Assembly (NCBI GenBank): GCA_002307715.1
Contig: DBUA01000035.1
Coordinates: forward strand, 1 to 52,449
DNA: 52,449 nucleotides
DNA from: Candidatus Moranbacteria bacterium UBA1302
GTDB lineage: Bacteria; Patescibacteriota; Minisyncoccia; Moranbacterales; UBA1568
Direction of reading: 5' to 3'
Of this stretch, positions 3,705 to 38,234 are shown piece after piece; within the stretch, counting starts at the first letter, position 1, and each line of letters opens with the position of its first letter. A model generated the notes under the pieces. It made no database searches, was not told where the DNA came from, and saw only the letters and a program-made list of their open reading frames with translations. A program made the translations under genes and the position numbers.

Positions 3705-3777
3705 GGGCCTGTAGCTTAGTTGGTAGAGCGCCTCCATGGCATGGAGGAGGTCAGGAGTTCGAGTCTCCTCAGGTCCA
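3705..3777 (+). tRNA. tRNA-Ala (GGC)
   Basis: Cloverleaf with anticodon loop atGGCat. The acceptor gggcctg/caggtcc gives the G3:U70 alanine identity pair. Confidence 0.9.
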
Positions 3778-3825
3778 CATTTTTGGCTTTTCATACATAA
3801 ATACCGTTAAAACGGTAAAGAATAA

Positions 3826-3897
3826 GCCTCCATAGCTCAATGGATAGAGCTATCGCGTCCTAAGCGAGAGATCTAGGTTCGATTCCTGGTGGGGGCA
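3826..3897 (+). tRNA. tRNA-Arg (CCT)
   Basis: Cloverleaf with acceptor gcctcca/tgggggc, anticodon loop gtCCTaa and T-loop ttcgatt. Confidence 0.85.
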
Positions 3898-3925
3898 CTA
3901 TCCAATAGATTATCATTTTTTATTT

Positions 3926-5877: not shown

Positions 5878-5878
5878 G

Positions 5879-5960
5879 TGCCGCGGGAGAGACTCGAACT
5901 CTCACGATCTTACGATCCGCGGATTTTAAGTCCGCTGCGTCTACCATTCCGCCACCACGG
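5879..5960 (-). tRNA. tRNA-Leu (TAA)
   Basis: The reverse complement folds with acceptor gccgtgg/ccgcggc, anticodon loop ctTAAaa, a long variable arm and T-loop ttcgagt. Confidence 0.9.
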
Positions 5961-5973
5961 CGATGTCATTTTG

Positions 5974-6044
5974 AGGTCGCGTCCGGAGTCGAACCGGAGT
6001 AAAAGGTTTTGCAGACCTGTGCCTAACCGCTCGGCCACGCGACC
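5974..6044 (-). tRNA. tRNA-Cys (GCA)
   Basis: The reverse complement has acceptor ggtcgcg/cgcgacc, anticodon loop ctGCAaa and discriminator U73 (Cys identity). Confidence 0.85.
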
Positions 6045-8219: not shown

Positions 8220-8228
8220 CTAAACCTG

Positions 8229-8300
8229 AGCGGGTAACGGGAGTCGAACCCGTATCTTAACCATGGCAAGGTTACATAATAGCCGCTATACGATACCCGC
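8229..8300 (-). tRNA. tRNA-Gly (GCC)
   Basis: The reverse complement has acceptor gcgggta/tacccgc, anticodon loop ttGCCat and T-loop ttcgact. Confidence 0.85.
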
Positions 8301-8361
8301 ATTGTTCTATTGTACAAAAGACATTTATTTCAAGCAAATATCTTTTGAGTTTTCTTGTGTG

Positions 8362-8434
8362 TGGGTCCGGCTGGATTTGAACCAGCGACCAAGCGGTTAT
8401 GAGCCGCCTGCTCTAACCGCTGAGCTACGGACCC
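8362..8434 (-). tRNA. tRNA with CAT anticodon (elongator Met, or Ile2 if lysidinylated)
   Basis: The reverse complement has acceptor gggtccg/cggaccc, anticodon loop ctCATaa and a paired G1-C72, so it is not an initiator. Confidence 0.8.
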
Positions 8435-8472
8435 GTCAGCATCCAGAAAATTCTTCTCTTATTGTTCGTATG

Positions 8473-8544
<72 letters not shown>

Positions 8545-8570
8545 GGCAATTTCTTGTACAATCATTCTAG

Positions 8571-8644
8571 TGCGTGCTGAGGGACTCGAACCCCCGACCC
8601 TCTCGGTGTAAACGAGATGCTCTAACCAACTGAGCTAAGCACGC
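8571..8644 (-). tRNA. tRNA-Val (TAC)
   Basis: The reverse complement has acceptor gcgtgct/agcacgc and anticodon loop ttTACac. Confidence 0.9.
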
Positions 8645-8688
8645 TACTCTCGATTTCCGGAAGATCCGTTTCTATCCTATTCATACTG

Positions 8689-8772
8689 TGCCCAGAAGAG
8701 GACTCGAACCTCCAATCCCTTGCGGGAACTAGCACCTCAAGCTAGCGCGTATACCAATTCCGCCATCTGGGC
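8689..8772 (-). tRNA. tRNA-Leu (GAG)
   Basis: The reverse complement has acceptor gcccaga/tctgggc, anticodon loop ttGAGgt and a long variable arm. Confidence 0.9.
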
Positions 8773-35859: not shown

Positions 35860-36963
35860 ATGTTTATGTCACTGTTTTCTTTTGGGACAGAAACCGATCG
35901 TTCAAATAAAAAAGGTGATATCCCGCAGGAGTTTTATGATGCCGTAAGCGTCATGGAAGATGTTCCGTTTGGAAAATTTGAGAAACAGCCTGTGACAACC
36001 TCGCAGATTAGCCAAGCAGAGAAACTCGCAGATGGAGCGAGCCCATTTTTAGATGCGTTTCCTTCAAAAAAAGAAGCGGCTGCAGAAGGTACAATAACAT
36101 TTCAGCCTTCGTCTGAGGATACACAGCCGATAGATGTTCCATCCGAACTTGTTTTTTCTGATGAAATTGACAAAAACACCCGTTTTTCTGAACCAGAAAC
36201 GAAATCTGATTTTTCGTCCCCTAAAAAACATACTGCAACGCTTATCATAGCGATTTCATCTATTGCGATAGTCTGCATCGCTCTCGCGTATTATTTCTTT
36301 TCTTACAGGCCAACGCATCAACAGCCGGAGATGTCGACTTTTTCTGAAGTTTCAGAGTCAACTTCATCCGAAGTACAATCAGAAACGGCAAGTACAATGC
36401 CTTTTGCAACGGATACGCCGAATTATCTGCCTATTGACACCGAAACAGCGACTGCAGAAAGCGTTCGAGCGGCTTTCTTGCAAATTTCAACTCAGATGGC
36501 CGATGCCGGGATGGATCAGCCGGTAGAATTCTTCGTAACGGATAACAACAATAACCCTATCGCATTCAGCCGGTTTGCCTATATGACGGGTATTGCTTTA
36601 CCGGCGGATTTTTTGGCATTGTCCAATGAGACATTTTCGTTCTGTGTTTATAATGATGGAGGACAGATGCGTTTTGTTCTCGATCTTTCATTTAAGGATG
36701 CGGCAACTGCCGAAAAACTTATCACATCGAACGAATCCGGGCTGCCGGCTGCATTCCAAAAATTATTTTACGGAACAGAGGTTATTGCTCCGAATGCAGC
36801 GATATTCCGATCAGGCGCTTATGGCTCCTCAGTTATTCGTTATGTGAATCTTGATATTGATCGTCATTATTCTCTTGATTATGTCATTGAAAATGGCGAG
36901 ATGATAATCAGTTCAAGCAAGGATGCCCTTCGCGCTTTCTTGGCAGTACGACAATCGAAATGA
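35860..36963 (+). CDS. Hypothetical bitopic membrane protein
   Basis: 367 aa with an acidic N-terminal region, a central TM segment (ATLIIAISSIAIVCIALAYYFF) and an extracytoplasmic C-domain without recognisable motifs. Confidence 0.65.
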   Translation: MFMSLFSFGTETDRSNKKGDIPQEFYDAVSVMEDVPFGKFEKQPVTTSQISQAEKLADGASPFLDAFPSKKEAAAEGTITFQPSSEDTQPIDVPSELVFSDEIDKNTRFSEPETKSDFSSPKKHTATLIIAISSIAIVCIALAYYFFSYRPTHQQPEMSTFSEVSESTSSEVQSETASTMPFATDTPNYLPIDTETATAESVRAAFLQISTQMADAGMDQPVEFFVTDNNNNPIAFSRFAYMTGIALPADFLALSNETFSFCVYNDGGQMRFVLDLSFKDAATAEKLITSNESGLPAAFQKLFYGTEVIAPNAAIFRSGAYGSSVIRYVNLDIDRHYSLDYVIENGEMIISSSKDALRAFLAVRQSK

Positions 36964-37106: not shown

Positions 37107-37135
37107 TTGACCCGAGTCGTTTTTTCTGCTATAAT
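37107..37135 (+). promoter_or_regulatory. Consensus sigma70-type promoter with no downstream ORF
   Basis: TTGACC (37107-37112), exactly 17 nt, TATAAT (37130-37135). Confidence 0.6.
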
Positions 37136-37141
37136 GGATTT

Positions 37142-37750
37142 GTAAGGTTTGATTCTTTGACAACCGCTCCCTCTCTTACTGCGAAAGCAGCCATTCAGGG
37201 ACAGTGGAAGAGCTCTCATCCGCAGCGATGCGTTGCGAAGGAGAACTCTTTCACTGTTCAAGTGTTTCGACAATGCATCGAAACCGCTCCGCCCTAACAC
37301 GGAGACAAAAAACAAAAACAAAAGACGGGGTTAGCTACACAGCGGATGGAAATCGCGTTTGTATCTGCTGCGTAGCTAATGCCCACGCTCTTGAAAATAA
37401 TAAACATCAAGAGAAAAAATAAAAAGAAACAAAAAAATCGTTCTTTCAAACAAAACAAAGGCTTTATGCCAGAGAATGGTGAAGGGAGAAGTGCTTGAAA
37501 CGTTAGGACAAGCGCAAAAAAATGACATGCGCACAAACTACACGAATGTTCCTTGGATCACTGATGCTACTTACCCGGGCTAGGTGACCGAAATATACGT
37601 GTTGGCACATGCAACGTCGGGCGCTACAGAGCCAAAATTTATATTATTTGGGCGTTCATAGCGCCCGGCACCAACAATTCCTGAAGGGAAGGGGTCGGGC
37701 AGAGTATGGAAGAATAGATTGTAGAGATGGCTTGAAAGGCCATTTTTTTA
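37142..37750 (+). ncRNA. Candidate large (~610 nt) structured non-coding RNA, family unknown
   Basis: It is bounded by a consensus promoter and a terminator and has no SD-preceded ORF. Hairpins: ctgc-GAAA-gcag 37179-37190; a 16-bp helix 37201-37217/37241-37257 enclosing cgca-GCGA-tgcg 37221-37232; 37264-37284; 37287-37304; 37331-37379; 37388-37413; 37512-37532. Nested helices span 37600-37676 and 37618-37667. A-rich linkers join them. Confidence 0.55.
37727..37750 (+). terminator. Rho-independent terminator ending the candidate ncRNA
   Basis: Hairpin atggct(tgaaa)ggccat followed by T7. Only the plus strand has the T-run. Confidence 0.7.
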
Positions 37751-37780: not shown

Positions 37781-38164
37781 ATGGGGACTTTCTCACTTTC
37801 ATCTCCGATTGGTACGCTTGGTGAGCGCATCGGTTGCCAGTATCTTCAACAAAAAGGCTATCGTATATTAGAGCGCAATTATTGCAATGCTCACGGACGT
37901 AGGCTTGGAGAAATCGATATCGTAGCCGAAAAAGAGAAGAAACTTATTTTTGTTGAAGTAAAAACACGTATTGATCCAGGAACATCATTGCCTGAAGAAA
38001 ACGTGACACGCGAGAAGCTGCGGAAGCTTGAACGCGTAGCTGTCCATTATCTTCGGGAAAAACATTCTGAAAATCGTCCGTATGCTTTTGATGTGCTCGC
38101 CATAACGTATGACAAGAAAACAAAAACAGCTCACGTGAGGCATCTAGAAAGCGTTTTTTTATGA
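37781..38164 (+). CDS. yraN: YraN-family (UPF0102) endonuclease
   Basis: GERIGCQYLQQKGYRILERNY...GEIDIVAEKEKKLIFVEVKTR. Confidence 0.88.
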   Translation: MGTFSLSSPIGTLGERIGCQYLQQKGYRILERNYCNAHGRRLGEIDIVAEKEKKLIFVEVKTRIDPGTSLPEENVTREKLRKLERVAVHYLREKHSENRPYAFDVLAITYDKKTKTAHVRHLESVFL

Positions 38165-38234
38165 AATCGCCATCGACAAGAGGTATATTTTTTGCTATAA
38201 TAAAGAAAGTAATAGTTGTTGATGATACAAAACT

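Follow-up and report, generated by a model that had tools for sequence, protein, structure and literature searches.

What occupies the 817-nt gap that separates the end of a 367-aa ORF (nt 36963) from the start of yraN (nt 37781) in the window, a 52,449-nt stretch of contig DBUA01000035.1 of Candidatus Moranbacteria bacterium UBA1302? The first-pass annotation had reported this gap, which is present as described, and had read it as the site of a candidate large structured ncRNA of no known class, framed by a promoter and a terminator. That core reading is upheld, as the sequence is conserved and covarying, holds no conserved ORF and matches no Rfam family. Nucleotides 37142-37749 are very probably an undescribed, independently transcribed large structured ncRNA of a Moranbacteria-like CPR clade, which would act in trans. 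The gene spans about 608-610 nt in the window and about 500-610 nt across the family.

The probable ends of the transcript are taken from consensus signals:

37107-37135, plus strand: sigma-70-type promoter (-35 TTGACC at 37107-12, 17-nt spacer, extended -10 TGCTATAAT at 37127-35)
37726-37749, plus strand: intrinsic terminator (GAUGGCU-UGAAA-GGCCAU, then U7)

The promoter, originally noted as TTGACC-17-TATAAT, matches the consensus at 11 of 12 positions, carries the TG of an extended -10 and suggests a transcription start near nt 37142. The pattern TTGACN-17-TGNTATA[A/C]T is found in all 19 main-clade copies that have upstream sequence (20 main-clade copies in all). The plus-strand rho-independent terminator was likewise found where it had been called (37723-37747, with a T run behind it); stem and T run are both kept in all homologues, while the sequence of the stem varies (GGCC versus CCC/GGG types). 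Folded alone, the window RNA has a minimum free energy of -213.7 kcal/mol (z = -7.2 relative to dinucleotide-shuffled sequences). Since the reverse strand gives a similar value (z = -7.4), the strand call rests on the promoter, the terminator and the many conserved G-U pairs.

Conservation among relatives, on which the first reading depended, was observed. A further 20 distinct homologues (54-81% identity) were recovered from metagenome and MAG contigs, so that the alignment holds 21 distinct sequences with the window. Their hosts are Moranbacteria-like CPR bacteria, and the loci fall within L014-L048. Loci were sorted as RNA-bearing or not by nhmmer; the family is so far confined to one clade, as recovered with a metagenome search pattern that demanded 22 exact bases. 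Contigs of the L048-type lineage number in the hundreds. Blocks of 15-25 nt in the RNA are invariant across the homologues, and the flanking proteins diverge far more (YraN 52-64% and the membrane protein 34-49% identity). A scan of genome contigs for YraN returned distant loci only (35-45% identity), none of them similar to the RNA, and an exact-protein look-up of YraN returned the same strain only, with 2 mismatches. A pattern match in L035 was rejected as due to chance, as it lies inside a GC-rich coding region. One copy of the RNA is found on a 652-kb contig (of ERZ25039597), indicating that the gene is chromosomal.

That the segment encodes a small protein, or is a pseudogene or a chance fold, has a negligible probability. 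A GTG-start ORF of 72 aa is present at nt 37204-37422, but neither this nor any other ORF keeps its position or length across 19 homologues, in agreement with the earlier reading of the unit as non-coding, and the 72-aa ORF runs across an optional 55-nt insert that is missing from most homologues. Substitutions within the stems are compensatory, and a chance fold is excluded by the fold z-score together with the conservation.

The claim that the RNA is structured was tested by covariation and held. Across the 21 aligned sequences, a structure of 117 pairs is 93.7% paired, with compensatory changes at 60 of the 117 pairs; controls in which the partners were slid gave 37-41% paired and 15-29 compensatory pairs, and the observed values were reached by 0/500 shuffles. 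Another covariation run gave 95.5% paired and 45 compensatory pairs, versus 8-14 with the partners slid. The supported fold is multi-branched. Its covarying helices number about 15 and fall into two halves, H1-H6 (joined by sequence-conserved A-rich single strands) and H7-H12:

37141-37198, plus strand: 5' segment, with conserved CUUUGACAA (37155-63), the pyrimidine tract CUCCCUCUCUU (37167-77), the hairpin cugc-GAAA-gcag (37179-90, specific to this lineage) and CCAUUC (37191-96)
37199-37217 with 37241-37259, plus strand: H1, 19 pairs, 7 compensatory, 95.7% paired
37222-27 with 37231-36, plus strand: H1b, inside H1, 6 pairs, 4 compensatory, GCGA loop in the window
37262-70 with 37278-85, plus strand: H2, 8 pairs, 6 compensatory, 97.6% paired, conserved CAAUGYA loop
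37286-37306, plus strand: H3, 3 compensatory pairs, 100% paired, loop CCUAAC (37293-98)
37307-37325, plus strand: A-rich linker 1, AAAAAACAAAAACAAAAGA, columns invariant or nearly so in all homologues
37328-37382, plus strand: optional hairpin of ~55 nt, with an internal GNRA-capped arm (GAU-GGAA-AUC)
37388-37414, plus strand: H4 (37389-94 with 37409-14), A-rich loop, 5 compensatory pairs, 77-85% paired in an alignment register that is imperfect here
37415-37459, plus strand: A-rich linkers 2 and 3 (37415-23 and 37447-59), one on either side of putative H5
37424-30 with 37440-45, plus strand: possible hairpin H5, AAGAAAC/GUUCUU, almost invariant
37460-70, plus strand: H6, GGC/GCC (GGG/CCC in L023)
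37470-92, plus strand: near-invariant purine block CAGAGAAUGGUGAAGGGAGAAGU
37491-37515, plus strand: H7, 7 pairs, 5 compensatory, loop GUUAGG (37502-07)
37525-37614, plus strand: 3' domain stack of H8, H9, H10 and H11, with invariant UGUUGGCACAUGCAA (37600-14)
37525-35 with 37603-12, plus strand: H8, 2 compensatory pairs
37540-48 with 37594-602, plus strand: H9, 5 compensatory pairs
37555-61 with 37584-89, plus strand: H10, 5 compensatory pairs
37566-80, plus strand: H11, conserved CUYACCCG loop
37617-27 with 37658-68, and distally 37629-38/37646-53, plus strand: H12, a long hairpin with 10 compensatory pairs, some of which stem from two subgroups being one base apart in register
37669-37676, plus strand: block CACCAACA, invariant in 21/21 sequences
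37677-37725, plus strand: variable 3' spacer, with semi-conserved GGGGUCGGGC (37691-700)

Among the helices that had been folded by hand, covariation supports 37201-17/37241-57 with its inner hairpin, the hairpins at 37264-84, 37287-304 and 37388-413, and cgggcgcta/tagcgcccg. The helix at 37331-79 is real but belongs to an optional module carried by 6 of the 21 sequences, and the GAAA hairpin (37179-90) and GCGA loop (37225-28) are present but restricted to this lineage. Two of about a dozen are not conserved, namely the closing helix attctt/aagaat (34% paired) and the hairpin at 37512-32 (67% paired, zero compensation). The candidate pairing tgttgg/ccaaca is invariant in all sequences and overlaps a covarying helix; by complementarity, CACCAACA has both UGUUGG (37600-05) and GGUG (37478-81) as candidate partners, and RNAalifold proposes GGUG/CACC. 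The optional hairpin occupies the 37328-82 site in the window and in L023, and lies after H5 in L015, L039, L025 and L041; a dispersed repeat was ruled out.

For the pyrimidine tract and CCAUUC of the 5' segment, the central purine block is a possible pairing partner. RNAduplex gave a mean z of -2.4 for the tract and block relative to shuffles, and in the window, L045 and L040 an A stands opposite the central U. This pairing was not seen in the two most divergent members, L046 and L048, and the helix is therefore kept as tentative, being moderately supported in the main clade.

A covarying loop-loop contact links H3 and H7, one hairpin in each half of the molecule. The H3 loop (37293-98) is complementary to the H7 loop (37502-07) over 6 pairs that are 99.2% paired, 4 of which are changed on both sides, and three perfectly complementary versions can be read from the sequences (CCUAAC/GUUAGG, UCUGAC/GUCAGA and UCUGGU/ACCAGA). 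Such a kissing contact would clamp both halves together, with the peripheral GNRA-capped arms docking on the core, and the RNA would work in trans, as a particle with a compact fold, whose invariant unpaired blocks (the CAAAAA repeats, CAGAGAAYGGUGAA, UGUUGGCACAUGCAA and CACCAACA) serve as recognition surfaces. Most likely, it is a compact fold that acts together with a bound protein.

The neighbourhood of the gene is conserved and of housekeeping character. At every RNA locus the gene 5' of the RNA encodes an uncharacterised single-pass membrane protein that adjoins pnp, placing pnp invariably two genes upstream of the RNA. Downstream in the window the order is yraN-dksA-lspA-comM, with the RNA 30 nt before yraN and on the same strand. 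This closeness is what would be expected of a leader or attenuator of the yraN-dksA-lspA-comM genes, and the semi-conserved 3' motif could form a helix alternative to the H12 base (GGGGUCGGGC is able to pair with CCCGGCACC by a reading of the alignment, and a 'GGUGAUCGGG'-like motif occurs in ~13/19 sequences). However, the homologues have their own near-consensus promoter, a strong terminator stands in all copies, and the downstream gene varies, being other than yraN in L038 and L027; because it differs in L038, a yraN leader is ruled out. In relatives that are just as close (L010-13, L021-22), the yraN loci are without the RNA element. A 3' UTR of the membrane-protein gene would have to reach across the ~145 nt and the promoter that set the RNA apart from that gene. 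A cis-acting role of either kind, including that of a riboswitch, is thus very improbable.

The membrane-protein neighbour (245-393 aa among the RNA loci) matched no Pfam or NCBIfam family, and a word-indexed homology search found 3 relatives only. Its AlphaFold model (pLDDT 88.9) gave nothing below E = 0.02 in a Foldseek search of the PDB. The conserved domain is predicted to be extracellular and RNA-binding features are absent, so the gene context provides no functional clue. A search of the window for antisense targets of the invariant blocks found none.

Could the gene encode a known RNA that has diverged, or gained insertions, so far that the Rfam models miss it? Insertions are known from the rRNAs of CPR bacteria, which lends this idea some plausibility. 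Yet, in line with the original assignment to no known class, the gap had no match, local or partial, to any of 4227 models of Rfam 15, either when the whole window was scanned at gathering thresholds or when the gap was searched at E<=10, and there was none at the gathering score in 18 homologous loci or at E<=1 in the divergent L046 and L048. The remaining Rfam output consisted of tRNAs and chance matches (HOTAIR, ZFAT-AS1, Alpha_RBS, CrcZ and CRISPR-DR33). RNase P RNA (RF00010/RF00011) gave no match even locally at E<=10, and tmRNA (RF00023) had no Rfam match, ARAGORN reporting 10 tRNAs and no tmRNA in the window. The invariant blocks, read for P4/CR-I to CR-V motifs, a tRNA-like end and SRP domain IV, showed none of them. 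Neither 6S nor SRP RNA was matched in Rfam, and 6S is a long irregular hairpin, in contrast to the multi-branched fold found here. The OLE model (RF01071) found nothing in the window at E<=10, nor in the 18 plus 2 other loci, and the ROOL, GOLLD, raiA and HEARO covariance models had no match in the window and 20 loci. A divergent RNase P RNA, tmRNA, SRP, 6S or OLE RNA is therefore extremely improbable. No description of this RNA was found in the literature searched, and the gene appears to represent a large bacterial non-coding RNA of a new class.

The likeness to OLE, ROOL and GOLLD drawn in the first-pass annotation holds for size and ornateness; as no homology was detected, it is an analogy only. 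Like OLE, the RNA is ~600 nt long, has many covarying helices among highly conserved unpaired nucleotides, and is a single-copy chromosomal gene that adjoins a membrane-protein gene and whose function is not obvious from context. The gene neighbour of OLE, oapA, encodes a small multi-pass membrane protein and its hosts are Firmicutes, whereas here the host is a CPR bacterium and the neighbour is single-pass with an external domain. We know of no A-rich linkers in OLE. ROOL and GOLLD are also large, ornate and of obscure function; the present RNA differs in its housekeeping neighbourhood, in lying neither beside tRNAs nor in prophages, and in having no copy in the viral contigs searched. With the large ribozymes (RNase P RNA and group I/II introns) it shares a multi-domain build tied together by loop-loop pairing over long range and by peripheral arms with GNRA caps, and also optional peripheral modules that shift their insertion point, but their conserved core motifs are absent, and neither intron boundaries nor exons on the flanks are present.

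By these analogies the gene might encode a ribozyme or an RNA-only assembly, in which intermolecular kissing loops build homo-oligomers in the manner of OLE, ROOL and GOLLD. The size, the invariant unpaired nucleotides, the GNRA-capped arms and the covarying loop-loop contact would all fit, and ornate homo-oligomeric RNAs are on record: in one report (PMC12286853), loop-loop and tetraloop contacts give ROOL and GOLLD their higher-order structure. Against this, neither a catalytic motif nor a substrate was found, the covariation fits intramolecular and intermolecular kissing alike, and the association with phages or tRNAs seen for ROOL and GOLLD is lacking. This alternative is doubtful, as is the related idea that it belongs to a new class of large RNA, either catalytic or self-assembling, of the rank of RNase P, OLE, ROOL and GOLLD. 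If the latter were true, the RNA would have been retained in minimal (~1 Mb) CPR genomes for a core cellular task, and a defined three-dimensional particle, possibly a homo-oligomer, would be formed through its covarying kissing loops and its GNRA arms.

The A-rich tracts between the helices had also been noted at the outset. They form three linkers (37307-25, 37415-23 and 37447-59) that are sequence-conserved although unpaired; linker 1 has an AT skew of +0.40, and CAAAAA-type tracts recur two to three times. In having repeated single-stranded A-rich motifs, a strong promoter and terminator of its own and a presumed action in trans, the RNA resembles CrcZ and CsrB. It might, as the first-pass annotation had put forward as a possibility, be read as a protein-sequestering sponge of the CsrB/RsmZ or CrcZ type, whose ARN/CAAAAA tracts titrate an RNA-binding regulator, with Hfq-, S1- or KH-type proteins, and possibly PNPase, as candidate targets. 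The invariable position of pnp two genes upstream would suit such a role but may be plain synteny. The weak local resemblance to CrcZ is due to the A-rich tracts and is at chance level (E = 3; 10.3 bits, where the gathering score is 95). Sponge RNAs mostly consist of hairpin motifs repeated in a simple array, whereas the architecture here is far more complex and non-repetitive, and some 15 different covarying helices, a kissing contact and unique invariant blocks exceed what a sponge needs. A sponge is on balance unlikely.

A ribonucleoprotein scaffold or protein-binding RNA, in which the A-rich tracts would hold a single-strand RNA-binding protein, is tentatively preferred as the mechanism, with rather less than an even chance of being correct.

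Large bacterial RNAs that combine rich covariation with many invariant unpaired nucleotides are rare, and to our knowledge every such class that has been solved has unusual biochemistry (RNase P, group II introns, tmRNA, OLE, ROOL/GOLLD). The CPR bacteria have very small genomes and a largely obscure biology, and an important function is implied by a ~0.6-kb locus that has a strong promoter and is better conserved than the proteins encoded beside it. The proposed family, 'Moranbacteria large ncRNA', is recognised by the promoter, the terminator, H1-H12, the H3-H7 contact and invariant blocks (CUUUCACUGUU, CCAGAGAAYGGUGAA, UGUUGG.ACA.GCA and CACCAACA), all of them present in the window and common to the 20 other sequences. 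With 21 sequences, a covariation-supported structure and a covarying tertiary contact, the RNA is directly testable.

The candidate RNA gene (window 37142–37749) lies in a gap whose length of 817 nt, from the end of the 367-aa ORF (36963) to the start of yraN (37781), agrees with the first-pass annotation. A consensus scan recovered both signals reported there, namely the promoter TTGACC-17-TATAAT (37107–37135; 11/12, plus an extended -10 TG) and a plus-strand terminator (37723–37747, followed by a T run). The promoter, in the form TTGACN-17-TGNTATA[A/C]T, is kept in 19/19 main-clade copies having upstream sequence (the main clade being all copies except the divergent loci L046 and L048), and every RNA copy carries a stem and U tract at its 3' end, the stem sequence varying by lineage. 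A second near-consensus promoter-like site, TCGACA-17-TATAAT (11/12, with TG; 38173–38201), lies just past the end of yraN, upstream of a dksA-like gene.

The 72-aa GTG ORF listed previously is present, and it crosses an optional 55-nt insert missing from most homologues. The longest ORFs of 19 homologues vary in strand, position and length, none being shared; judged from these sequences, the RNA is non-coding. The 611-nt stretch has a minimum free energy of −213.7 kcal/mol, where dinucleotide shuffles average −156.6 ± 7.9 (z = −7.2). That the unit is coding, as the ORF might suggest, or a product of chance has next to no probability. Because the reverse strand gives a similar fold z, the strand call rests on the promoter, the terminator and the many conserved G-U pairs, which would read A-C on the opposite strand.

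YraN homologues put the window among Moranbacteria-like CPR bacteria; among the RNA-bearing loci, one comes from a MAG that carries the name Candidatus Moranbacteria (protein OGI21889.1), and the same strain as the window is present in two other samples. Contigs with YraN 52–64% identical share the gene order pnp, membrane protein, gap, yraN, dksA-like, lspA, comM-like, with intergenic gaps of 715–835 nt that align to the window gap. A 22-base pattern of two blocks, drawn from invariant stretches, retrieved another 20 loci from metagenomes along with a single match due to chance, and two extra YraN look-ups supplied L046 and L048, which are clearly more divergent (nhmmer 144 and 188 bits, remaining copies at least 385). 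The total is 21 distinct RNA sequences of 54–81% pairwise identity. Main-clade RNAs have invariant blocks of 15–25 nt; the adjacent membrane protein of those genomes is just 34–49% identical, and their YraN 52–64%. One copy is on a 652-kb contig, and the gene is therefore chromosomal; viral contigs held no copies.

Comparison with Rfam, suggested in the first-pass annotation, matched neither the gap nor the homologous loci to a known family. At gathering thresholds, Rfam 15 found ten tRNAs and nothing else in the whole window; at E<=10 the gap gave four chance-level matches, the top one scoring 13.8 bits vs a gathering score of 60. ARAGORN found no tmRNA in the window, 18 homologous loci had no Rfam match at gathering score, and L046 and L048, the most divergent homologues, gave a lone chance match (CRISPR-DR33, E = 0.72). 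The likeness to OLE, ROOL and GOLLD proposed earlier holds for size and ornateness alone, and the tests run for membership of known families all failed. We therefore class the RNA as a new family, so far of one CPR clade within a search reaching close relatives only; a divergent known RNA is very improbable. Full-text literature searches on CPR, Patescibacteria, Moranbacteria and Parcubacteria turned up no large ncRNA in these organisms, to which a 50-genome ncRNA survey does not extend. The ten tRNA genes (Rfam, ARAGORN) lie at 1051–1125, 3705–3898, 5878–6044 and 8228–8772, the last being a minus-strand cluster of five.

The consensus structure was obtained with RNAalifold on the tool alignment, less three doubtful long-range helices, and then tested for covariation as the first-pass annotation had recommended; it was supported on both alignments.

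Covariation in the consensus structure (19 sequences; 21 sequences, the structure count of the latter taking in the loop-loop contact)
Pairs in structure: 112; 117
Cells holding a standard pair: 95.5%; 93.7%
Pairs with changes in both partners: 45; 60
Cells with changes in both partners: 200; 243
Slid-partner control, cells paired: 38–42%; 37–41%
Slid-partner control, pairs with changes in both partners: 8–14; 15–29
Shuffles matching observed values: 0/500; 0/500

The exception is the pair-type count for 19 sequences, matched by 43/500 shuffles. The best-supported helices include the following (plus strand):

37199–217 with 37241–259, H1
37262–70 with 37278–85, H2
37286–91 with 37300–06, H3
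37491–97 with 37509–15, H7
37540–48 with 37594–602, H9
37555–61 with 37584–89, H10
37617–27 with 37658–68, H12

At H12 two subgroups differ in register by one base, which accounts for part of the apparent covariation; the covariation of this helix should be counted cautiously. H5 is almost invariant, a candidate pairing with no covariation to read, and the H8 strands are mostly invariant, though L046 has G-C in place of one A-U pair. Among the hand-folded elements, the 5'/3' closing helix (34% paired) and the 37512–32 hairpin (67% paired, zero compensation) are not conserved, and the GAAA and GCGA loops are present in the window but limited to its lineage. The tgttgg/ccaaca pairing is invariant in 21/21 and has three bases in common with H9, which covaries; it may be an alternative pairing or a pseudoknot, to which covariation, given its invariance, cannot speak.

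Across the main clade (19 sequences), CCUAAC (37293–98) occupies the H3 loop and GUUAGG (37502–07) the H7 loop. Both are invariant except in L028, so that no covariation is readable there; the L028 double change (C to A in one loop, G to A in the other; alignment A4, columns 188 and 487) affects both partners of the terminal kissing pair and abolishes it, and is the sole loop change within the clade. The loops of L048 (UCUGAC and GUCAGA) and L046 (UCUGGU and ACCAGA) are perfectly complementary, and over 21 sequences 4/6 pairs have changes on both sides, with 99.2% of cells paired. By this covariation the divergent copies settle the H3-H7 loop-loop pairing, which joins the 5' half (H1–H6) and the 3' half (H7–H12). 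The contact may form within one molecule or between two, covariation being indifferent to the choice; a ribozyme or RNA-only assembly is distinctly unlikely. At the sequence level, the comparison demonstrates a non-coding RNA that has transcription signals of its own, is highly structured and strongly conserved, and makes a tertiary contact that covaries; it would act in trans as a compact particle.

The region 37300–37500 is strongly A-rich (AT skew +0.40), and the three A-rich single-stranded linkers noted earlier are conserved in sequence among homologues; their positions, and that of an optional hairpin, are:

37307–25, plus strand, A-rich single-stranded linker
37415–23, plus strand, A-rich single-stranded linker
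37447–59, plus strand, A-rich single-stranded linker
37328–82, plus strand, optional hairpin of ~55 nt with a GGAA-capped arm (same site in L023)

A role in protein binding or as an RNP scaffold, in which proteins would dock on the conserved A-rich single strands, is plausible though short of probable; a simple sponge RNA is unlikely, at a likelihood that overlaps with the former. The helix drawn earlier at 37331–79 is a genuine hairpin in the window and in homologues, but an optional one, absent from most copies. Four other loci have a homologous ~55-nt hairpin after H5 (L015, ~2640–2700; L039; L025; L041), so that the lineages with a hairpin use one or other of two insertion points. Such a movable peripheral arm suggests that two linkers may be close in space. 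A dispersed repeat was rejected, as the hairpin occurs nowhere else in the window or loci.

Several alternative pairings were seen. The H1 5' strand GACAGUGGAAGAG (37199–37212; mostly GAACGGUGAAAGAG among homologues) nearly duplicates GAAUGGUGAAGGGAG, the invariant block at the centre (37474–37488), which gives the H1 3' strand two possible partners. H1 is favoured by the compensatory changes seen in L028 and L040, an alternative fold being less likely. In the main clade, the near-invariant purine block CAGAGAAYGGUGAAGGGAGAAGU has a complement in the 5' segment, which is variable and rich in pyrimidines (mean z −2.4 vs shuffles). The sole variable base of the block is C or U, and three lineages match it with G or A. 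This long-range helix is tentative, since L046 and L048, without the tract and the GGGAG part of the block, show no such duplex. A semi-conserved 3' motif, GGUG(A)UCGGG (37691–37700; ~13/19 sequences), is complementary to CCCG(A/G)CACC, the H12 3' strand plus CACC (37663–37672). The two vary in step (UCGGG with CCCGA, CCGGG with CCCGG), and as read from the alignments their helix would exclude the H12 base; the motif may act as a conformational switch or be left over from a duplication.

Wherever flanks are available, the RNA is directly 3' of the 367-aa protein homologue, itself after pnp. The downstream gene is usually yraN, and a different one in L038 and L027. Six loci (L010–L013, L021–L022) have YraN 57–68% identical, no more distant than that of RNA-bearing loci and in part closer; a LytR_C-domain or S1-domain protein lies directly upstream, and the surrounding 3 kb lack the RNA. 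A yraN leader was rejected on these grounds, and a cis-regulator is very improbable. The constant neighbour (35860–36963; e.g. 1017–2165 in L014) is a single-pass protein with one transmembrane helix, a variable, acidic N-terminus and a conserved C-terminal domain of ~180 aa, predicted by the positive-inside rule to lie outside the cell. The protein matched no Pfam or NCBIfam family, and the confident AlphaFold model of the C-terminal domain (pLDDT 88.9) had no PDB match below E = 0.02. We read the adjacency of this gene as conserved synteny and draw no functional clue from it.
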